NCBI GenBank assembly: GCA_034658975.1
Contig: JAYEGJ010000126.1
Coordinates: forward strand, 1 to 57,436
Length of the DNA: 57,436 nucleotides
Source of the DNA: Actinomycetota bacterium
GTDB lineage: Bacteria; Actinomycetota; Acidimicrobiia; Spongiisociales; ZC4RG35
Direction: 5' to 3'
Of this stretch, positions 42,643-54,494 are shown one piece after another. How positions within the stretch are numbered: position 1 is the stretch's first letter; each line of letters starts with the position of its first letter. The notes under the pieces were generated by a model. It was not told the origin of the DNA. It saw nothing but the letters and a program-made list of their open reading frames with translations, and did not search any database. Made by a program: the position numbers and the translations under genes.

Positions 42643-43146
42643 ATGGGGTGGAATGCCATTGGGGTGGCGATGCAGACGCAGATGACCTATCCGGCGTTGA
42701 GGGAATACACGGCTTTCGCTCGCCGGCACGAACCCGCTCTCCGTCATTCGCTCGTCGCTCACCTCGGATATGAGGCAGGTCGGGAGGCCACTCAGGACGC
42801 TCTCGTGTTTGCGCGGGAGAACTGGAATCGGCTTCAGTCAACCCACAATCCCGGTGGCTACCTGTTCCGTGTCGCGAAACGGCGCGCACTGCGTCGGGCA
42901 AGAACAAGGACAGAGATTCCTTTTGAGCGATCAGCCGATGAGTTGCCTTGGGTCGAGCCCAAGCTCGAGGAGGCTCTCCGACAGTTGTCCAGACGGCAGC
43001 GTGCAGTCGTCTTCCTCGTTGAGGGTTTGGGACTAAGCCATCGAGAGGCTGCCGAGCAGCTGAACATCTCGAAGTCCGCCGTGCAAACCCACCTGGAGAG
43101 CCATGTCAAAGCTCTTCGCCGGAGATGGCACGAACGTCATCAATGA
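42643..43146 (+). CDS. ECF-type sigma-70 family factor
   Basis: 167 aa. Region 2 (EATQDALVFARENWNRL...GGYLFRVAKRRAL) and region 4 HTH (LSHREAAEQLNISKSAVQTHL). The start may be internal. Confidence 0.8.
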   Translation: MGWNAIGVAMQTQMTYPALREYTAFARRHEPALRHSLVAHLGYEAGREATQDALVFARENWNRLQSTHNPGGYLFRVAKRRALRRARTRTEIPFERSADELPWVEPKLEEALRQLSRRQRAVVFLVEGLGLSHREAAEQLNISKSAVQTHLESHVKALRRRWHERHQ

Positions 43147-44344
43147 ACCGGTGGCCCCAGCCTCCGAATTGACTCCACCGTCAATACCGCCTGAGTTGCC
43201 TTCGGTGTGGGCGGCCGGGGACACGTTGGCGCTGGTCGACTCCTACTACCAGGCTCTCAACGACGGCGACCTGGGAGCGGCCCATGCGGTCGGCCCTTGG
43301 ACCTTCGACGAGGAGCGATCAGCAATCCTGGCCTACGACGCTCGATATGAGTGGACATGCTCGATGGTTGCGGACATGGAAGTCACCTGCTCAGAGCGAG
43401 TCTGGGATGCCTTCCACGGTCCCGCCGGACTGATCCACGAGGCCACTGCCACCTATCGGATCGAGCAAGGAAAGCTGGTGGGAGGCGAATCCGGTGTCTT
43501 CCCGAGCGTGAACGGCCCGGAAGGTGAGTTCCTCACATATCTCCAAGAGTTCGATGAATGGTTGTGGGAGGACCATCCCGACGTCGACTGGCTCTGGCTA
43601 ACCGAACACGAAGGTGTGCCCAACCTCTATATGAACCTGGAAACACCAAGGGCAGCTCCGATCAAGGAACTCGTCCTGGAATTCATCGAGATTTCCGACG
43701 CCTACCCGGCGCCCATCGGCGCGACACCTCAGAGCCAACTCGGTCCACCCATCCCATTCGACCCTCCCGACGTGTATCCCCCCGAAGGGCTGGACTTGAG
43801 AGTGGTGGGTATTGCACATGATGGTGGGCTCAATCTCAGAGAAAGTCCAGGACTGTCGCCTGTTGTTGCCGTCCTGGCTTCGACTGATGAAGTCAGCGCT
43901 ACCGGCAATGGCCATGAGGCTTCGGGGTCGATGTGGTGGGAGGTCGACGCCGGTGGAACCATCGGCTGGGTGAACGCCAAGTACCTGGCTTCATGGGCAA
44001 GCGCCCGATTGGATCTAACCCCTTACATCCTCAGCGAGTTCCGTGCGTATCCAGAAGCTGCATCAATGGAAGACCTGGGTCATCTGATCGCCGAATCCTT
44101 AGTCTCCGACGAGTATCCGTGGAGGTCGGTGGTGATCACTCCTACCACAACCATCTTCAACACTTTCATCGCCCTCGATGTGGTCGCCGATGATCCAATG
44201 GGGCTTCGCATCGCAATGAATGAGCCTGCGGGTCAGACGGGATGGCGCCTCACAGTCAACGGAGAGTCCGTCGACGGCGGATATCGACTCACGAGAGTCG
44301 AAGGCCAGCCTCTCCTCAACGCATGTGCTTGCTGGGCGCTATAG
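43103..44344 (+). CDS. Hypothetical protein with NTF2-like N-region and SH3b-like domain
   Basis: 413 aa, overlapping the sigma gene by 44 nt. LVDSYYQALNDGDL is NTF2-like and GLNLRESPG...WWEVDAGGTIGWVNAKYL is SH3b-like. No TM helix or zinc anti-sigma motif seen. Confidence 0.6.
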   Translation: MSKLFAGDGTNVINEPVAPASELTPPSIPPELPSVWAAGDTLALVDSYYQALNDGDLGAAHAVGPWTFDEERSAILAYDARYEWTCSMVADMEVTCSERVWDAFHGPAGLIHEATATYRIEQGKLVGGESGVFPSVNGPEGEFLTYLQEFDEWLWEDHPDVDWLWLTEHEGVPNLYMNLETPRAAPIKELVLEFIEISDAYPAPIGATPQSQLGPPIPFDPPDVYPPEGLDLRVVGIAHDGGLNLRESPGLSPVVAVLASTDEVSATGNGHEASGSMWWEVDAGGTIGWVNAKYLASWASARLDLTPYILSEFRAYPEAASMEDLGHLIAESLVSDEYPWRSVVITPTTTIFNTFIALDVVADDPMGLRIAMNEPAGQTGWRLTVNGESVDGGYRLTRVEGQPLLNACACWAL

Positions 44345-44457
44345 CTGGGACCACCGCCGGACGTTTGGCGGCTCGTGTTTGGGTCGCGGAAGTCTTCGGG
44401 TGAGCTGGTCGCGAGAGGGGACCTGTTGGGTGACCTGGTTGAGATCTTCCACGAGGA

Positions 44458-44478
44458 AACCCTGACCAGGGTCAGGGT
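44458..44478. terminator. Hairpin downstream of 43103..44344
   Basis: aaccctgac cag gtcagggtt, a 9-bp perfect stem with a 3-nt loop and no clear U-tract. Confidence 0.35.
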
Positions 44479-44564
44479 TGTTAGGGGGTCATACCCAATA
44501 GACCGGACGGGTTGCATGTTGCATCGTGGGCGTAGACAGACACACCACGACAAGGAGACCGACT

Positions 44565-44930
44565 ATGACGACCGAAATCCTTTCGACCACCAATGAGGTG
44601 TCGTCGGACTCTCGCAACCTGGCCACGCTGAGCCATCTCTCGGCGTTCGTTGCCTTCCTCGGCATCCCTTCGCTGGTCGGCCCGCTGGTCATGTGGCTCC
44701 TCAATCGAGACGACCCCTACGTCGAGAGCCAAGCCAAGGACGCGTTGAACTTCAACATCTCCTTCTTCATCTACGGTTTGATCGCGGCGATCTCGATCAT
44801 TTTGCTGGTTGGCATCATCGCCCTCCCCGCCGTCGCTATCACCTGGTTTGCGCTCGTGATCGTGGCATCAGTGAAGGCGGCCAGAGGCGACAACTACCGG
44901 TATCCCTTCACCATCAACTTCGTCTCGTGA
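44565..44930 (+). CDS. DUF4870-type small membrane protein
   Basis: Trimmed to the ATG at 44565, preceded by AAGGAGA. LSHLSAF..VGPLVMWL...ESQAKDALNFNISFFIY pattern with 3 TM. Confidence 0.75.
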   Translation: MTTEILSTTNEVSSDSRNLATLSHLSAFVAFLGIPSLVGPLVMWLLNRDDPYVESQAKDALNFNISFFIYGLIAAISIILLVGIIALPAVAITWFALVIVASVKAARGDNYRYPFTINFVS

Positions 44931-45085
44931 CAGACATCGTCACCACCCACATCGGAGGAGGTTCCAACTCCTCCGCCAGGCACCATCGGCAGCGACCGGG
45001 TTGAGGTGCCTCCCAACCAGACGAAGAGCCGAAGTCCCTCTTCCTCAAAAGTGCAAGGTTTGTCCGCGTTTGGACGTCCCCGATG

Positions 45086-45137
45086 TCCCCACCTCAGGTT
45101 GAGGGGATATAGGGGACGCCCGAAACCGGTCGTCCCC
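45086..45137. repeat. Left boundary repeat: 19-nt direct-repeat module + 35-nt inverted-repeat module
   Basis: 45086-45104 tccccacctcaggttgagg and 45103-45137 ggggatataggggacgcccgaaaccggtcgtcccc. Partner at 48831-48879. Confidence 0.85.
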
Positions 45138-45150
45138 ATATCGAAGACTC

Positions 45151-47364
45151 TCATGAGCGCCCCTCGAAGAGAGCTCTGAGTCCTTCCTGGTCTACCCAGA
45201 CTGAGCCGATCCAGGAGTCTGCAAGGACTCGTCCCTGGGGGGAGTCCTCCCATACCTGGGTGATCTCGATGAGCCCTTCGTACAGGGTGGGGTCAACGGC
45301 TTCCCAAGTTGTGGGCCAGTCTTGGCCGTCTCCGCCGAATACCAGGAAGGTGGGCTCATAGGTCGCTCGGTTGACTTGCCCAATCACCGAGCGCGGGTTC
45401 CCTCCGTCCCCGATGTGTCCGACATAGACGTACTGATCTGTGAGGAGCAGCCAGGATGGGACAGCGGAGGGCATGGGATATGCCCGGAGGATGGTCCCGT
45501 CAAGACCTGAGAGGAGCAGCTCTCCGTACTCCTGTGTGCAGATCACTTCGGTCGGATAGCTCCCGTTGATATTGCCGAACAGACAGTCGTTGTCCCGAGC
45601 CATCGCGATGAAGCCGGACGAAGGGACTTCGATTGTCCAGTTCCCTTCCGGCGTCGCTATTGCTGGGAGTAGCGGGACCGATCGGATGGTCTTGGGAAGT
45701 GCAGCTAGCTCGGGAACGACTCCGTCTCGCTCTGCGTCTTCGCCCGACTGGGAGGCCGGGTCGTCGAGGCTTCCCGGTAGCAGTTCTGTTGACTCCAGAA
45801 CACCTCCCAGCATCCATCCGTGCGTTCCCAACTCCGTCAAGACCAGGTCCCATTCGGCACCTTCGCTGTCAGTTGTCCGGCGTTCCAAGACGGCGACGAA
45901 ATCGCCCAACTCCAATTCCTCGACCGGGATGAAGTTGGTTCCCGGTCCGGCGTAGACGGTTGATCCTGCCTCCCGGGACACGGTCTCGAAGTGCTGGGTG
46001 GCCACGGCGCCCTGGAGCGTGCATTCGTCCACGTTGCGCCACACCGCTTCGAGGTCGCACTCTCTGGTGAGCAGTGCCCCGGTGTTGATGAAGAGGGTCG
46101 ATGCCCACTCTTCGCGGGTGGTGACACCAGAACACACAGTCTCGCCCCAACACAGCGTGCTCCTATCGACCCCCTCAACCTCGGGGAAATGGAACACTGT
46201 GGCGAAGAGTGGATCGAACAGCGACAAGACCTGGTGGGACGTGAGCGATCCGGGATCCCAAGTCTGGCCACTCTCGTCGAGAACTGCTACCCGAGCCACC
46301 CCTTCTGAGTTCAGGGTGATATCAACTGTCAGGCCCTCTGGCCCGAAGTCGCTGGTAACGAGCGCGGTCACCGCCTGCTCCAGGGTCGGTTCAGGCCCTG
46401 CCTGGTATATCGGGATCGGCGGGAGTCCTGGGTCTCCGTTGCAGAGCGTGAAGAAGGCGATCGGCCCTGTCGGCGTTGACTGCAAGGTTGGACACGAGAT
46501 GGTTGGCAGCAGATCACCATCTCGATCAACTGGGTCCCCTTGTACAACATGGAGGGTTCCGCCCAGAGCGCTGACGATTGTGTCGCATTCCACCTGGTCG
46601 CCCGAACAGTCAACTCTCCAGTTGTCGCCGTAGACCTGAGCCGACGTCTGCCCGTCATTCGTATACCGCGCCGCTGTGGTGACGACATCCTCGATCACCT
46701 TTGCACCCGGGGCGCCTACGTAATACACCATGAATTGGCTGTGGAGCGTGCAGATCGCCGAGTCGAACTCGTTCTGCGGGTTGGGGCGTCCTGGAAAACT
46801 TGTCGCCTGCCACCTGTCACAAGTGAAGCCGGCAGCCTCGACCAGATCACGCATCTCATGTACATCTGTGAATGTCGACGACGAGGTCGTTTCGCTTCTC
46901 TGGTCTTCCCACATCTCCGACACGGCCACTCCCATGTGCTGGTTGAAGCACTCGAAGAACCGACTATCGGGATTCGACGAGTCTGCGCCTGCAGCAAACG
47001 AGTTGTTGAAGAACCCTCTCTCAACGGTGAACTCCACCCTGGTCGTACCCTGAGCTACACAGTCGACGACTGCCTTGCCGGCAGCCTCGTACTCGGCTTC
47101 AGTGACGACACCGTCGGCGAGAATCTCAGCTGGGGTTGGCGCATCGGCCACCTGGGCGGGGGGTTGAATCTGGCCGCCAACAGTGGCAGTGACCCACACG
47201 ACCCCGGCAAGGCCAGCGACGGCAAGCGCCGGGATCCCAACTCTTCGTCGGATCTGACGGCTCCGACCACGCCTCATCGTCTCCGACGAACCGCGAGGGT
47301 TCCATGGGTCCTGTCGGGCGGCCTCAGCTTCGAGCATCGAACGAATCTGGTCGTCGGTCTTCAT
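45151..47364 (-). CDS. Single-pass membrane protein coupled to an ECF sigma factor (anti-sigma-like) with large extracytoplasmic region
   Basis: 737 aa. ATGA overlap with the sigma gene, a short cytoplasmic N-terminus, one TM (IPALAVAGLAGVVWVTA) and an SH3b-like segment (VYAGPGTNFIPVEELELGDFVAV...HGWM). Confidence 0.65.
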   Translation of the reverse strand: MKTDDQIRSMLEAEAARQDPWNPRGSSETMRRGRSRQIRRRVGIPALAVAGLAGVVWVTATVGGQIQPPAQVADAPTPAEILADGVVTEAEYEAAGKAVVDCVAQGTTRVEFTVERGFFNNSFAAGADSSNPDSRFFECFNQHMGVAVSEMWEDQRSETTSSSTFTDVHEMRDLVEAAGFTCDRWQATSFPGRPNPQNEFDSAICTLHSQFMVYYVGAPGAKVIEDVVTTAARYTNDGQTSAQVYGDNWRVDCSGDQVECDTIVSALGGTLHVVQGDPVDRDGDLLPTISCPTLQSTPTGPIAFFTLCNGDPGLPPIPIYQAGPEPTLEQAVTALVTSDFGPEGLTVDITLNSEGVARVAVLDESGQTWDPGSLTSHQVLSLFDPLFATVFHFPEVEGVDRSTLCWGETVCSGVTTREEWASTLFINTGALLTRECDLEAVWRNVDECTLQGAVATQHFETVSREAGSTVYAGPGTNFIPVEELELGDFVAVLERRTTDSEGAEWDLVLTELGTHGWMLGGVLESTELLPGSLDDPASQSGEDAERDGVVPELAALPKTIRSVPLLPAIATPEGNWTIEVPSSGFIAMARDNDCLFGNINGSYPTEVICTQEYGELLLSGLDGTILRAYPMPSAVPSWLLLTDQYVYVGHIGDGGNPRSVIGQVNRATYEPTFLVFGGDGQDWPTTWEAVDPTLYEGLIEITQVWEDSPQGRVLADSWIGSVWVDQEGLRALFEGRS

Positions 47365-47924
47365 GACAGGTCCTTCCTCAAGGCTTCCAAGCCGCGATGC
47401 AGGCGGCTCTTGATGGTTCCTTTTGCTACGCCGAACGCCTTGGCCATATCTGCTTCCGACATGTCCAGCAGATATCGGGCAACCACGACTTCCCGCTGGT
47501 GGACCGGCAGCCTGCGAAGGGTCGCGACCAATTTCGGGTCGGGTACTTGCGGATCGTCTTGGCCAACGTCAGGGACGGGGAGATTCGACCGGTATCGGCG
47601 GCGCTTGAGACGGTTCCTCGCCCAGTTCATCGCCACCACGTACACCCAACCCTCGGGGTTGGCCATGACAGACACCTTCTCCCACCGCTCGTATGCCCTG
47701 ACCATGGCTTCTTCGGTCGCGTCCGCAGCGAGATCGGCATTGCCGGTACCAACAGCGACAGCACGATGAACCTGATGGCCAGCACGGCTGTAGAAAGATT
47801 CGAAGGACTCAACTCTCAAGTCAGCACCCACGGTCGTCTCGGCATACATCATCACATAGACAGTCCGGAGCCCGCTTCGGTTCCCAGAACCCGACCGAAG
47901 AAAGGCGTCCTCGAAGCTACCCAC
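47361..47924 (-). CDS. ECF-type sigma-70 family factor
   Basis: Region 2 (FESFYSRAGHQVHR...EEAMVRAYERW...EGWVYVVAMNWARN) and region 4 (LPVHQREVVVARYLLDMSEADMAKAFGVAKGTIKSRL). The true start is probably the ATG at 47852 (MMYAETT). Confidence 0.85.
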   Translation of the reverse strand: MGSFEDAFLRSGSGNRSGLRTVYVMMYAETTVGADLRVESFESFYSRAGHQVHRAVAVGTGNADLAADATEEAMVRAYERWEKVSVMANPEGWVYVVAMNWARNRLKRRRYRSNLPVPDVGQDDPQVPDPKLVATLRRLPVHQREVVVARYLLDMSEADMAKAFGVAKGTIKSRLHRGLEALRKDLS

Positions 47925-47984
47925 GCTCCGGCGCTGCCGGTTTTTGGCTCCCAGAAGTCTCTTGTGATGGCCTCGACGCGGCCA

Positions 47985-48110
47985 TCAGGATCCACGAAGA
48001 AGCTCAATTGCTCTGCCAACCGTCTCCTTGACGCGTCGAATGCTTTGCTCCCAGTCGGAAATCTCCAGAGCATCGCTGATCGCATTGGCGACTTCGCTTC
48101 GGGTTGTCAT
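47985..48110 (-). CDS. Candidate 41-aa ORF translationally coupled to the upstream gene
   Basis: My own translation gives MTTRSEVANAISDALEISDWEQSIRRVKETVGRAIELLRGS. Its ATG overlaps the TGA of 48107..48733 (ATGA). It is below the ORF-track cutoff and competes with the listed 47852..48085 ORF in another frame. Confidence 0.3.
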   Translation of the reverse strand: MTTRSEVANAISDALEISDWEQSIRRVKETVGRAIELLRGS

Positions 48111-48733
48111 AGGCCGTCTCGTATCTCGAGAAGAGCTTGCTTCACGTTGAGTAGTTCATCACCGTGCAGTGACAAGAATTCCACTTGGCGTTCGGAGAGG
48201 ACGACGATCATGAGCTTCGACGCAACCTTCTCAACGGATTCCTCGGAGAGGTTTGACGAACCCAATGCAATGCTCTGCGATTCATCGGATCCCTCTACTG
48301 CAGCGGCTACAAACTCAGGCGTAATCAGTTCTTTCCAGGACGAAACCAGGAACGGGGCCCACGTGAGCCACACGTAATGCTCGTACATGGCCGGCGAGTA
48401 CGTCTCAATCCGGTAGCACTTGGCGAGGAAGAGCCGGTACTCGGATCCCTGATCTCCCGCCGAGCTGTAGTTCTTGACCTCAGCAACGAACATATTCCCA
48501 TTGACGTCTCCGCCAAGAAGCGTCCCGGCCAAATCAAATGAGAAGTGATCACCTTGGCTCGTTGATCCGGCTGAAGCGCTTGCCTTTGGGAACTGAAGTT
48601 TCCCGATGTGTCCAGGATTGTTCCAATGAACCATGGCGCGACACGTCGACTCAAGCCAGCGTTTCGCTGTCTCCGACCCGCTCGTCCCCCGAGCCTGAAT
48701 CTCCTCCCCAGTCAAAGGGCATTGACATGACAT
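48107..48733 (-). CDS. Hypothetical protein with PD-(D/E)xK-like nuclease motif
   Basis: 208 aa. D68 (FSFDLAG) and E85-V-K87 (VAEVKNY) have nuclease-like spacing. A/T-ending codons are noticeably more frequent than in neighbours. The family assignment is pattern-based only. Confidence 0.65.
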   Translation of the reverse strand: MSCQCPLTGEEIQARGTSGSETAKRWLESTCRAMVHWNNPGHIGKLQFPKASASAGSTSQGDHFSFDLAGTLLGGDVNGNMFVAEVKNYSSAGDQGSEYRLFLAKCYRIETYSPAMYEHYVWLTWAPFLVSSWKELITPEFVAAAVEGSDESQSIALGSSNLSEESVEKVASKLMIVVLSERQVEFLSLHGDELLNVKQALLEIRDGL

Positions 48734-48830
48734 TACCTAGTGAGAACAGTGACGAACCGATAAGGGGACGCCGAGAATCCATCCGGGTTCGAGCGTCCCC
48801 CAATCCTTTCGCCCGAACAAGCAGGGATGG

Positions 48831-48879
48831 GGGGACGACCGGTTTCGGGCGTCCCCTATATCCCCACCTCAGGTTGAGG
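48831..48879. repeat. Right boundary repeat: 35-nt inverted-repeat module + 19-nt direct-repeat module
   Basis: 48831-48865 ggggacgaccggtttcgggcgtcccctatatcccc is the exact reverse complement of 45103-45137. 48861-48879 tccccacctcaggttgagg is identical to 45086-45104 in direct orientation. Confidence 0.85.
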
Positions 48880-48935
48880 AGGATCGGACGACCGATATAC
48901 TTCTCCGGTCTCGCCTGTTGTCGCAGGCAAGCCCC

Positions 48936-49013
48936 GGGCGCGTAGAACAGTCTGGAGTGTTCGCCGGCCTGTCAAGCCGGAGGTCGCGGGTTCAAATCCC
49001 GTCGTGCCCGCCA
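48936..49013 (+). tRNA. tRNA-Asp (GTC)
   Basis: Hand-folded cloverleaf: acceptor GGGCGCG/CGTGCCC, D stem GAAC/GTTC, anticodon arm CCGGC-CTGTCAA-GCCGG, T arm GCGGG-TTCAAAT-CCCGT, encoded CCA. Confidence 0.95.
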
Positions 49014-49041
49014 ACCGGAGCCCTAGAGGTTTCGGTCCTTT

Positions 49042-49117
49042 GGTCAGGTAGCTCAGTCGGTAGAGCGCCGGTCTGAAAAACCGGAGGTCGACGGATCGAC
49101 GCCGTCCCTGACCACCA
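49042..49117 (+). tRNA. tRNA-Phe (GAA)
   Basis: Acceptor GGTCAGG/CCTGACC, D arm GCTC-AGTCGGTA-GAGC, anticodon arm CCGGT-CTGAAAA-ACCGG, T arm GACGG-ATCGACG-CCGTC, encoded CCA. Confidence 0.95.
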
Positions 49118-49137
49118 GAAGTCAACCGCATGCCTTT

Positions 49138-49180
49138 CTGTGCGGGTTTACTACGCGTCACGCGTAACTAACCCGCACAG
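49138..49180. terminator. Long imperfect hairpin downstream of the tRNA pair
   Basis: Outer stem ctgtgcgggtt / aacccgcacag (11 bp) enclosing the palindrome tacgcgt c acgcgta. No U-tract. Confidence 0.4.
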
Positions 49181-49265
49181 AACGGTCGAATGGACTCGGC
49201 CCGGGAACCATCCACCCCCGGCTGACGTCTGAAGCCTGTCCCCGCAATCGAGGAGTTCCACGCGC

Positions 49266-49961
49266 ATGGAAACCATGACGAGACCACCAGAGACGGAAAG
49301 CACCCCACCCGCTCCCCGCCCACCACGTGTCACGTTCCCTGCCGTCGTCGCTATCGCCTTCCTCGCCATCGTGGCCCTGTTCGGGTTCCTCACCTGGCGT
49401 GCCGTGAGCAACGCCGTCGACGGTGTTCCCACCGTGGCCGACATCCAGGAGGCCTTCGCTCCCCAGCCTTATGAAGACATAGGACCGGTCGTGGTCACAG
49501 CCATCTGGGACCTCGGCGAGTTGACCACCGTCGAGATGGTGGAGCACACCTATATCGAGAAGGGCACTGACGGCGGATGGCTTGCATGGGCCCGGGGCGA
49601 CAGTCTCTCGATGTTGGTCGTTGCCGAGATCGGCGCCGGAGTCGACCTCACCACCCTCACTCCGGCCGACTTCGACGTGAGCGATGATGGTGTCGTATCG
49701 CTCCAACTCCCCCACGCCGAGATCCACTACACGGCGATGGACAACGAAGCGACCGTGGTCATCGACCGTGAGGTAGGCCTTTTCACCAAGGGTGACTCAC
49801 AGCTCGAGAGCGAGGCCCGTCAGTTGGCCGAGACCATTCTCCTCAACCAGGCCATAGAGACCGGGATCCTCGAGAGCGCAGAGACGAACACGACGAAGGT
49901 CCTCACCAACTTCCTCATCAGCCTCGGCTACAGCAACGTGGAGATTACCTTCTCGGGCTGA
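49266..49961 (+). CDS. DUF4230-type membrane-anchored protein
   Basis: 231 aa. N-terminal TM (FPAVVAIAFLAIVALFGFL) and a body resembling DUF4230 (GELTTVEM...AEIGAGVDL...). Confidence 0.6.
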   Translation: METMTRPPETESTPPAPRPPRVTFPAVVAIAFLAIVALFGFLTWRAVSNAVDGVPTVADIQEAFAPQPYEDIGPVVVTAIWDLGELTTVEMVEHTYIEKGTDGGWLAWARGDSLSMLVVAEIGAGVDLTTLTPADFDVSDDGVVSLQLPHAEIHYTAMDNEATVVIDREVGLFTKGDSQLESEARQLAETILLNQAIETGILESAETNTTKVLTNFLISLGYSNVEITFSG

Positions 49962-52805: not shown

Positions 52806-54494
52806 ATGATGAGGCACAAACGACTTGCGATCATTGGCGTACTCGCCTTGATCGCTGCGTCGTGCACGGGTGGCGAAGCCGATGACACGACAACAACCCC
52901 CGAGGCGCCAGCGACCACCGTCGCCCCCGCCACTACGGCCGCTCCGACAACGACAGAGGCCACGGTGACGACGACGACGGAGGAACCCGCTCACCCGGAG
53001 ACCGACATGCGGTCGCTGGATGCTGGTGAGGCTGCGATCACGGTTGATGGTGATGCTGCTGATTGGGGTGATGTGGCCGGCCTGTCGATGACGTTGGAGC
53101 CGATCGTGGATCGTGCTGATGATCCGCTCGAAGACAAGGACGTCACCATCCGGATGGCTCATGACAGCGACCTGCTGTATGCGCTGTTCACCGTCGAGGA
53201 CGACTACGACTGGGTCGCTGACGACCACAACCTGTCGGCTGCACTTGCGGTCATGTTCCCGGTTGACACCGGTGGTCCGCATATGGGCGCCGACGATGAA
53301 GCAGGCGAAACATCCACCGGGATGGTGGACATCTGGCACTGGGAGCTGGATTGTGCTGCCGGCGAGTTGAACGGCGGAGGAGCCGGACATCCTGCCGGTG
53401 AAGGCAAGGATCCGGGCAACGACGACGTCTGCAACATGGACGACGAATGGGCCACCGACGCAGAAACCCGCGAGGACGACAACACCGCAACCGGTGAGAA
53501 CTCGTTGACGGGTGTGTGGTGGCACTCCAACCCCGTCGAGAATGGTGCTCCTGGCACCTGGTACTTCGAAATGTCCCGACCCCTCGACACCGGAGACGAG
53601 CAGGACGGACTGTTCACAGTTGGTGAGTCCACACTGCTGGCACTCGCCTACTGGGACGCCGACTTCGGACCCGACGGATGGGACGACTCCACCCACGTCC
53701 AATCCTCCAACCAAGGCTGGATCAACGTCAATCTGATAGCGGGATCGGCCGCCGAGGCAACACGGTCGTTGGATGCTGGTGAGGCTGCGATCACGGTTGA
53801 TGGTGATGCTGCTGATTGGGGTGATGTGGCCGGCCTGTCGATGACGTTGGAGCCGATCGTGGATCGTGCTGATGATCCGCTCGAAGACAAGGACGTCACC
53901 ATCCGGATGGCTCATGACAGCGACCTGCTGTATGCGCTGTTCACCGTCGAGGACGACTACGACTGGGTCGCTGACGACCACAACCTGTCGGCTGCACTTG
54001 CGGTCATGTTCCCGGTTGACACCGGTGGTCCGCATATGGGCGCCGACGATGAAGCAGGCGAAACATCCACCGGGATGGTGGACATCTGGCACTGGGAGCT
54101 GGATTGTGCTGCCGGCGAGTTGAACGGCGGAGGAGCCGGACATCCTGCCGGTGAAGGCAAGGATCCGGGCAACGACGACGTCTGCAACATGGACGACGAA
54201 TGGGCCACCGACGCAGAAACCCGCGAGGACGACAACACCGCAACCGGTGAGAACTCGTTGACGGGTGTGTGGTGGCACTCCAACCCCGTCGAGAATGGTG
54301 CTCCTGGCACCTGGTACTTCGAAATGTCCCGACCCCTCGACACCGGAGACGAGCAGGACGGACTGTTCACAGTTGGTGAGTCCACACTGCTGGCACTCGC
54401 CTACTGGGACGCCGACTTCGGACCCGACGGATGGGACGACTCCACCCACGTCCAATCCTCCAACCAAGGCTGGATCGAAGTAACGATCAACTGA
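52806..54494 (+). CDS. Lipoprotein with two tandem EB_dh/DOMON-like (putative heme-b or CBM9-like) domains
   Basis: 562 aa. Lipobox LIAASC, a T/P/A-rich linker, then two identical 238-aa modules (ITVDGDAADWGDV...IRMAHDSDLLYALFTVEDDYDW...DIWHWELD...WYFEMSRPL...AYWDADFG) reminiscent of the ethylbenzene-dehydrogenase gamma/DOMON-like fold. Confidence 0.75.
   Translation: MMRHKRLAIIGVLALIAASCTGGEADDTTTTPEAPATTVAPATTAAPTTTEATVTTTTEEPAHPETDMRSLDAGEAAITVDGDAADWGDVAGLSMTLEPIVDRADDPLEDKDVTIRMAHDSDLLYALFTVEDDYDWVADDHNLSAALAVMFPVDTGGPHMGADDEAGETSTGMVDIWHWELDCAAGELNGGGAGHPAGEGKDPGNDDVCNMDDEWATDAETREDDNTATGENSLTGVWWHSNPVENGAPGTWYFEMSRPLDTGDEQDGLFTVGESTLLALAYWDADFGPDGWDDSTHVQSSNQGWINVNLIAGSAAEATRSLDAGEAAITVDGDAADWGDVAGLSMTLEPIVDRADDPLEDKDVTIRMAHDSDLLYALFTVEDDYDWVADDHNLSAALAVMFPVDTGGPHMGADDEAGETSTGMVDIWHWELDCAAGELNGGGAGHPAGEGKDPGNDDVCNMDDEWATDAETREDDNTATGENSLTGVWWHSNPVENGAPGTWYFEMSRPLDTGDEQDGLFTVGESTLLALAYWDADFGPDGWDDSTHVQSSNQGWIEVTIN
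53010..53723 (+). repeat. Tandem duplication copy 1 (period 753 bp)
   Basis: By direct comparison, 53018-53723 is identical to 53771-54476. There is one synonymous C/T difference at 53016 vs 53769. Confidence 0.95.
53763..54476 (+). repeat. Tandem duplication copy 2
   Basis: See copy 1. The copies are separated by a 39-nt in-frame linker (53724-53762, NVNLIAGSAAEAT). Confidence 0.95.

Follow-up and report, generated by a model that had tools for sequence, protein, structure and literature searches.

We describe a segment of the chromosome of a bacterium of the class Acidimicrobiia (Actinomycetota; GenBank assembly GCA_034658975.1) that spans positions 45086-48879 of contig JAYEGJ010000126.1 (57,436 nt; hereafter, the window) and that we read, with a probability of roughly 40%, as an integrated accessory cassette of 3775 bp that carries no recombinase and is either decayed or mobilised in trans. 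The ends of the segment consist of direct and inverted repeats with sharp borders of identity, one of the ends overlaps the promoter of a tRNA-Asp gene, and the cargo between the ends is composite and partly decayed; no recombinase family was found in the window genes scanned. From this pattern we infer an integration event, a circular form of the DNA and an enzyme encoded elsewhere or lost.

An earlier, sequence-only reading of this DNA had described a nested geometry in which a direct repeat and an inverted repeat precede the cargo and the same two repeats follow it in reverse order, and both the coordinates and the sequences of these repeats, which are clearly non-random, stand. The exact 35-mer GGGGATATAGGGGACGCCCGAAACCGGTCGTCCCC is found at 45103-45137 on the plus strand and at 48831-48865 on the minus strand, and has no further match in the 57-kb window with up to 3 mismatches (0 expected from shuffled sequences). 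When extended, the inverted repeat reaches 40 nt at 95% identity and is by far the top-scoring long-range inverted repeat within the 57 kb. The exact 19-mer TCCCCACCTCAGGTTGAGG, denoted D, is present at 45086-45104 and 48861-48879, on the plus strand in both cases, again with no further match in the window at up to 3 mismatches (0.02 expected); the direct repeat reaches 41 nt at 85% identity (45064-45104 versus 48839-48879) and, when gaps are allowed, about 60 nt. The exactness of both repeats and their uniqueness within the 57 kb speak for an integrated element.

To describe the ends, we denote by H the 26-nt hairpin GGGGACG-N12-CGTCCCC and by H' its reverse complement, by T and T' the pentamers TATAT and ATATA, respectively, by h't the left outer arm and by y the DNA that follows the right D. 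Each end is a copy of one palindromic module of about 60-80 nt, and the two copies are in direct orientation: the left end reads h't-D-T'H and the right end H3-(30 nt)-H'T-D-y, where H3 (48764-48800, plus strand) is a third and longer hairpin of the GGGGACG...CGTCCCC type. The hairpins within the repeat modules that had been noted before are indeed present, with H3 having been overlooked. On the left, the outer arm h't (45064-45085, plus strand) repeats the 3' half of the right hairpin together with TATAT in direct orientation, if imperfectly (16/22), and pairs with 45103-45131; the left D holds a small hairpin, CCTCA-GGT-TGAGG, and is followed by no -10-like hexamer; and the left inverted repeat (45103-45142, plus strand, exact over the 35-mer) consists of ATATA and H. 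The exact part of this repeat ends 13 nt past the stop codon of the gene for a 737-aa protein, that is, in the position of a terminator, and the entire left end folds as a single long imperfect hairpin (-41 to -45 kcal/mol, z about -3.2 to -4.0) located between the convergent DUF4870 and 737-aa genes. On the right, the inverted repeat (48826-48865, plus strand, exact over 48831-48865) consists of H' and TATAT and runs into the right D.

The borders of identity at the ends are sharp. The core D is identical in 19/19 positions and the inner arms in 35/35, the left outer arm matches in 16/22, and a 4-nt gap is needed to align the right outer arm with T'H (y versus T'H, GGAT----CGGACGACCGA versus GGATATAGGGGACGCCCGA). 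A perfect core and perfect inner arms combined with diverged outer arms are the pattern that recombination between an attP and an attB site would leave. The repeats had been taken for a duplicated att or target site, and this is upheld to the extent that the asymmetry of the arms fits an attL/attR pair, with the reservation that D is not a simple target. Indeed, the last six bases of the right D (48874-48879, TTGAGG) are the -35 box of a sigma-70-type promoter, TTGAGG-16-TATACT (48874-48901, plus strand), that belongs to the adjacent tRNA-Asp (GTC; 48936-49013) and tRNA-Phe (GAA; 49042-49117) gene pair on the plus strand. This promoter, located about 35 nt upstream of tRNA-Asp, is the only good match of its type on the plus strand of the scanned interval 44400-49400, and its spacer, y, is a degenerate copy of ATATA-H. 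The direct repeat ends 56 nt before tRNA-Asp, in agreement with the distance of about 55 nt given previously, and the notion that it is an anonymous target is not borne out, given that its 3' hexamer is a promoter element.

Comparison with the only relative that has a comparable locus, an Acidimicrobiia metagenome-assembled genome (GCA_033720975.1; L013/L014) whose DUF4230 protein is 73% identical to the one encoded in the window, further characterizes this site. BLAST homology between L013 and the window begins at 48874 and continues through both tRNA genes; the -35 and -10 boxes of the tRNA-Asp promoter are kept in the relative, so the right outer arm and the two boxes are native. In L013, complementary arms, GCGACCGC...GCGGTCG, pair around the -35 box, and because these arms bracket the box in the relative, the palindrome around the tRNA-Asp promoter is ancestral. 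The repeat modules themselves resemble the native DNA upstream of tRNA-Asp in L013, so that a foreign origin of the ends is not obvious. Specifically, for the 150 nt that precede the -35 box in L013, the best alignment is the one to the H3 region (48773-48810; local score 22, p about 0.02 from shuffles), whereas the comparison with the DNA upstream of the left D yields nothing significant (p = 0.67), and in a global comparison L013 matches the right module somewhat better than the left (39/52 versus 34/54).

The locus is plastic in this lineage. No synteny with the window was detected among the relatives that were fetched through DUF4230, and in L013 the 3' half of tRNA-Phe occurs a second time, as a copy of 48 nt (L013:7333-7380; 98% identity to window 49069-49117) that follows the intact gene (L013:4391-4464) at a distance of about 2.9 kb. 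Elements that integrate into a tRNA gene usually leave such a partial duplicate, which marks an island.

The most economical account of the asymmetry of the arms is an insertion of the Campbell type. Under this scenario, the native chromosome would have carried a single imperfect palindrome, h't-D-y, overlapping the -35 box of the tRNA-Asp promoter (reconstructed empty site: CGTCCCCGATGTCCCCACCTCAGGTTGAGGAGGATCGGACGACC), and a circular DNA of 3775 bp would have borne this site as a near-perfect palindrome, H'T-D-T'H (reconstructed circle junction: GGGCGTCCCCTATATCCCCACCTCAGGTTGAGGGGATATAGGGGACGCC), which by computation folds as a hairpin of about 90 nt at about -87 kcal/mol. A crossover between circle and chromosome inside the 19-bp core D would then produce attL, h't-D-T'H (45064-45137), and attR, H'T-D-y (48831-48901), and would restore the tRNA promoter; the recombinase would be encoded elsewhere in the genome or would have been lost. 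The accessory, partly decayed cargo and the plasticity of the tRNA locus agree with such an insertion.

The cargo is accessory, as indicated by a nearly orphan 737-aa protein, by a nuclease gene, A, that occurs in defence and mobile contexts and is low in GC content at third codon positions (GC3), and by the truncation of the partner gene of A, B. What had been described as a four-gene cassette accordingly comprises an intact sigma/anti-sigma operon, the remainder being a decayed two-gene module that consists of A and a 41-codon stump of B. The sigma factor (163 aa; 47361-47852, minus strand, with the ATG start taken from the gene call in the Logan assembly) belongs, as previously suggested, to the extracytoplasmic function (ECF) type: it contains Pfam Sigma70 regions 2 and 4, and its nearest NCBIfam model is that of the SigE family (E = 5.7e-35, yet below the curated cut-off of the model). 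The adjacent gene for the 737-aa protein (45151-47364, minus strand) overlaps the sigma gene by 4 nt, and the protein is anti-sigma-like by position only. It has a single hydrophobic stretch near residues 45-65, read by eye and probably membrane-spanning, matches no Pfam family, and has only 2 homologues among 5.8 billion proteins, both of them encoded next to a sigma gene in other contexts. An ECF-type promoter-like motif, GGGAACC-N16-TGTCTA (47857-47885, minus strand), is located directly upstream of the sigma start and is assigned by this position only, the relaxed form of the motif not being enriched in the window.

The only close homologue of this operon (71% and 53% identity for the sigma factor and the 737-aa protein, respectively) is found at L011:456-3155, where it precedes, in the same direction, a probable tRNA-Met (CAT) gene that is cut by the contig end; this tRNA was read by eye, and ARAGORN found none there. 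Relative to tRNA-Asp, a flipped version of the cassette would match the arrangement in L011. Within the window, a second ECF sigma factor (167 aa) is encoded to the left of DUF4870, followed by an overlapping gene for a 413-aa SH3-domain protein (42643-44344, plus strand; GC3 0.64-0.66). The possibility that the operon in the cassette arose as a recent inverted duplication of this neighbouring pair was rejected, as the two sigma factors are only 32% identical and their partner proteins are unrelated.

Gene A (208 aa; 48107-48733, minus strand) encodes a PD-(D/E)xK-type nuclease, an earlier assignment that is now backed by an invariant D...ExK motif and by weak matches to nuclease folds. The family to which it belongs (about 205 aa, 37 matches) is well conserved, with D67, E85 and K87 invariant, and the AlphaFold model of A (pLDDT 79.8) gives weak matches to the nuclease domains of Cap4, LmuA, BstEII, Card1 and Avs3, the best with E = 1.8e-3. 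In every relative examined, A is followed and overlapped by B, a gene of about 470-487 codons with no Pfam or PADLOC family (A-B loci: L006:10001-12036, L007:10001-12036, L008:2036-4062, L018:5001-7066 and L019:4998-7024). In the cassette, all that is left of the approximately 470-aa B is a 41-codon remnant, B' (47985-48110, minus strand), the ATG of which overlaps the stop codon of A (ATGA) as it does in the relatives, and the first 36 aa of which are 44% identical to the N-terminus of B from L008 (tblastn E = 7e-5). Thus, the small ORF of 77 aa (47852-48085) that had been counted among the genes of the cassette is probably spurious, the conserved frame being that of B', which is a different one. 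Because an internal deletion cut B to 41 codons, DNA has been lost from the cassette; a terminator-like hairpin with a T-run (47928-47950, plus strand), antisense to all the cassette genes, separates the B stump from the sigma promoter and is probably what remains of the stretch that went missing along with most of B.

The genomic contexts of the A-B pair are those of defence and mobility. One locus has an integrase, a TrwC relaxase and DndB as neighbours, others are in an island with Qat, KAP and Mrr genes or, on an Arthrobacter plasmid, beside a type ISP restriction-modification enzyme, and on a linear plasmid of Streptomyces the pair is directly adjacent to Tn7-like transposition genes (TnsA-like protein and Mu-type transposase). 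An intact pair is carried, for example, by Arthrobacter pA40H2. We consider A-B, a conserved and unannotated two-gene module in Actinomycetota, to be a candidate for an uncharacterised defence system and, given its recurrence beside defence and mobility genes, a more concrete lead than the cassette itself. The repeats are not part of the A-B module, a possibility that we rejected: homology to the A genes of relatives does not extend past the coding region, and H and D motifs are missing from the loci of these relatives.

Several observations weigh against an integrated cassette. The earlier statement that the segment contains no transposase or integrase holds for the cassette proteins in Pfam, NCBIfam and PADLOC, and the same is true of the surroundings: no integrase or other recombinase, and no member of the resolvase, invertase, transposase or RAYT families, was found in the cassette or among the approximately 45 window ORFs scanned, which are ordinary chromosomal genes (sugar metabolism, ABC transporters, transhydrogenase, Bpa, two-component systems). 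The composition of the sigma/anti-sigma operon is near-native (GC3 0.69-0.70 versus a background of 0.75 +/- 0.06, within about 1 standard deviation), and composition in general is not upheld as a sign of foreignness, gene A (54.7% GC and GC3 of 0.63, the lowest of the region) being the only one that is clearly low in GC3. Immediately internal to the right end, the sequence (H3 and H') appears no less native than the left outer arm; the likeness to L013 on the right side counts against an insertion because the simplest model expects the left outer arm to be the native one. A perfectly palindromic attP of 35 nt is unusual for integrases. Finally, neither a second copy nor an empty site nor a circle junction was observed in collections that lacked the source lineage. 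In 185,579 species-representative genomes of GTDB, the exact 19-mer has 3 matches (Streptomyces, Pseudomonas and Kineosphaera) and in JGI metagenomes a single one that is unrelated by inspection; the flanks of the Streptomyces match, the one that was read, are unrelated as well, and we take the GTDB and JGI matches for chance. The source lineage must be absent from these two collections because the window's own two copies of the 19-mer were not returned, and look-ups of the exact flanking proteins, DUF4870 (with two start choices) and DUF4230, gave no record. Viral contigs contained no match for the 19-mer or the 26-nt hairpin H, and a search of plasmids with the left-end module returned nothing relevant.

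The principal competing explanation, unlikely in our estimate and still one to be taken seriously, is that the modules are a mosaic of extragenic palindromes, akin to repetitive extragenic palindromic (REP) sequences, bacterial interspersed mosaic elements (BIMEs) or REPINs, or else reused terminator hairpins. The modules would then represent a local or genome-wide family, two members of which happen to flank a segment that was never mobile as a unit, and the inner arms would owe their identity to gene conversion or to recombination between inverted copies. The arrangement of the arms is in line with this explanation: there are four to five H-type arms, all intergenic and alternating in orientation, h'(-), H(+), H3(+), H'(-) and y(+), with two types of linker between them, T-D-T' and a 30-nt spacer. 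The long hairpin of the left module between convergent genes is in a position typical of a terminator or BIME, the modules resemble the native upstream DNA of L013, and there is no mobility gene among the window genes scanned. Against it, the other ~53 kb of the window contain no additional copies of H or D even with 6 mismatches or with relaxed patterns, which argues against a family of at least 200 members, not against a small one. The combination of perfect core and inner arms with outer arms of 73% identity requires two conversion events, one direct and one inverted; moreover, Rfam matches only the two tRNAs and none of the repeat modules, and a RAYT-like gene was not found among those of the window. 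A non-autonomous transposon of the mobile insertion cassette (MIC) type, in our judgement a distinctly less probable candidate, would have terminal inverted repeats of 35-40 bp starting with GGGG and an abutting 12-bp target-site duplication, ACCTCAGGTTGA; the transposase would be encoded elsewhere, and the element would have entered a palindromic target similar to its own ends. This reading accounts for the perfect repeats as well as the Campbell-type insertion does, the direct repeat, if taken for a duplication of 12 bp, adjoins the inverted repeats precisely, and a circle of 3775 bp with abutted inverted repeats and a spacer of the length of the duplication would resemble the intermediates of copy-out/paste-in transposition. 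Perfect terminal repeats flanked by a perfect duplication, with no transposase inside, are furthermore what defines a MIC (PMC3913671). Yet, a duplication of 12-19 bp is long for known bacterial transposons, the identity runs 5 nt and 2 nt past the 12-mer, and the target flanks resemble the inverted repeats for about 20 nt more; because of this resemblance, a MIC requires the extra assumption of a preference for end-like targets. There is also no cognate insertion sequence or second copy in the window, the plasmids and viral contigs show no similar ends, and the inverted repeat has neither the inner TAAG nor the 5-bp duplication of the Tn3 family.

An inversion of the segment, to which we would assign only a small chance and which is compatible with the other readings, would use the 35-nt inverted repeats as crossover sites at which an invertase encoded elsewhere flips the 3.7-kb block. 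H is dyad-symmetric around its central AA/TT, its 12 + AA + 12 = 26 bp have the same geometry as hix and gix sites, and the phage Mu G segment is close to the cassette in both segment size and length of the inverted repeats. In the flipped state, the genes between 42643 and 49961 would all share one strand and the hairpin of the 737-aa gene would be directly upstream of the tRNA promoter, similar to the homologous operon in L011, which likewise lies upstream of, and is co-directional with, its probable tRNA-Met. The computed junctions are ...GGTCGTCCCCATATCGAAG at present and ...GGTCGTCCCCCCATCCCTGC when flipped, those on the left ...GGTCGTCCCCATATCGAAGACTC and ...GGTCGTCCCCCCATCCCTGCTTG, respectively. 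Such a switch leaves the direct repeats unexplained, however, no serine or tyrosine recombinase is present beside the segment or among the window genes scanned, and one orientation only was seen, the independent assembly discussed next being blind to orientation. That assembly (Logan, SRR26901932) contains a contig of 3753 bp that is identical to window 45108-48860 and stops 30 nt into either copy of the inverted repeat, a break that is expected of a k=31 graph, as we infer it to be, at an inverted repeat of 35 nt. The source of the window is apparently a metagenome assembly, and this exact coincidence of the break with the inverted repeats might suggest an artefact, namely the erroneous joining of a separate contig to the chromosome at the hairpin repeats. 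We deem this highly improbable: the interior is reproduced base for base by the independent assembly, the junctions h't-D-T'H and H'T-D-y are hybrid and specific, and normal reads, being longer than both D (19 nt) and the inverted repeat (35 nt), would span them. A bolder version of the integration scenario, which strikes us as improbable, is that the palindrome at the tRNA-Asp promoter is a dedicated recombination site through which a recombinase encoded elsewhere in the chromosome captures and exchanges recombinase-less circular cassettes. Such a system might be an actinobacterial counterpart of dif modules and integron cassettes, with a site that doubles as a tRNA promoter element, and the ends of the element, which would form a perfect hairpin of about 80 nt, could perhaps act as single-stranded DNA.

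Recombinase-less gene segments that presumably move with the help of enzymes supplied in trans are not without parallel, and our segment most resembles an integrase-less islet at a tRNA locus and, among the trans-dependent systems, dif modules or MICs; nevertheless, it fails a defining feature of each of the families compared, and the comparative evidence is thin. With the integrase-less tRNA islets it shares direct repeats with an identical core and diverging arms, a tRNA neighbour, an accessory and partly decayed cargo that includes a low-GC gene for a defence-type nuclease, and a copy of the site in the element that restores a host function, here a promoter, after integration. It differs from them in that the core lies in the -35 box of a tRNA promoter, not at the 3' end of a tRNA gene, that the att-like sites are long palindromes, so that the ends appear as perfect 35-nt inverted repeats, and that neither an integrase nor an integrase remnant is detectable. 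The dif modules of Acinetobacter plasmids are gene modules without a recombinase that are located between inversely oriented Xer sites (PMC6449649, PMC7399989). They resemble the segment in that the site has a native cellular role and the movement is presumed to depend on host enzymes acting in trans; by contrast, H, T and D lack the 11-6-11 XerC/XerD motif (by eye, against the description in PMC6449649), and the cassette has a flanking 19-bp direct repeat, is known as a single module, and resides in the chromosome of an Acidimicrobiia host. The idea that the ends are themselves dif sites was rejected, as no 28-bp XerC-6-XerD sites are visible there by eye.

MICs, such as MIC231 and the mic elements of qnrD and qnrS2, carry passenger genes within terminal inverted repeats and a duplication and are devoid of a transposase (PMC3913671). 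The likeness extends to the repeats, the flanking direct duplication, the lack of a transposase inside and the mobilisation that is presumed to occur in trans, whereas the duplication found here is 12-19 bp long and extends into the repeats, compared with 2-12 bp in MICs, the target flanks resemble the repeats, and no cognate insertion sequence is known. REP sequences, BIMEs and REPINs are similar in being GC-rich, imperfect intergenic palindromes of alternating orientation with conserved linkers and a possible role as terminators; they differ in that, here, there are no copies outside the locus in 57 kb and no RAYT gene was found, and in that the inner copies are perfectly identical and the outer ones diverged. 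Invertible segments of the Gin/Hin type, exemplified by the G segment of Mu, have in common with the cassette a size of about 3-4 kb and inverted repeats of about 34-35 bp with a 26-bp dyad-symmetric unit and a central AA, but the cassette has no adjacent invertase, carries direct repeats outside the inverted ones and gives no sign of two orientations. The ends of Tn3-family transposons are inverted repeats of about 38 bp that run from GGGG to TAAG and are accompanied by a 5-bp duplication; an origin from such ends was rejected since, although GGGG is present, the inner TAAG is missing and the 5 nt that flank the repeats differ (GTTGA versus ACCTC). An integron gene cassette with attC sites was rejected, too, as the sites are inverted rather than direct, the cargo has a promoter-like motif of its own, and there is no integrase. 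Also rejected was the interpretation of H as an ECF promoter (GGGAC-N13-CGTC), for which the spacing is wrong.

If the segment indeed was integrated, accessory genes, namely a regulatory sigma/anti-sigma pair and a defence nuclease, entered a streamlined Acidimicrobiia chromosome at a promoter-proximal palindrome without a recombinase of their own, and the few cassette systems that depend on enzymes supplied in trans (integron cassettes, dif modules and MICs) would gain a member from a phylum that has received little study, with a site of a new type. Conversely, if the modules are REP-like, they are an ordinary structured intergenic repeat.

Three further features of the window lie outside the segment. 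Directly after tRNA-Phe, there is a palindrome with 26-nt arms (49133-49185) whose sequence bears no relation to the H and D modules and which is probably the terminator of the tRNA pair. Farther downstream, an ECF-type motif, GGAACC-N16-CGTCT (49204-49230, plus strand), precedes the DUF4230 gene (49266) by 36 nt, which is no more than a hint that DUF4230 may be part of an ECF regulon, given that motifs of this class were found 4 times in the window versus 3 expected. Lastly, a 707-nt repeat with 100% identical copies at 53017-53723 and 53770-54476, spaced 753 nt, lies inside a gene for an EB_dh-domain protein (52806-54494) and yields two identical domains of about 236 aa; it is either a very recent duplication within the gene or an assembly artefact.

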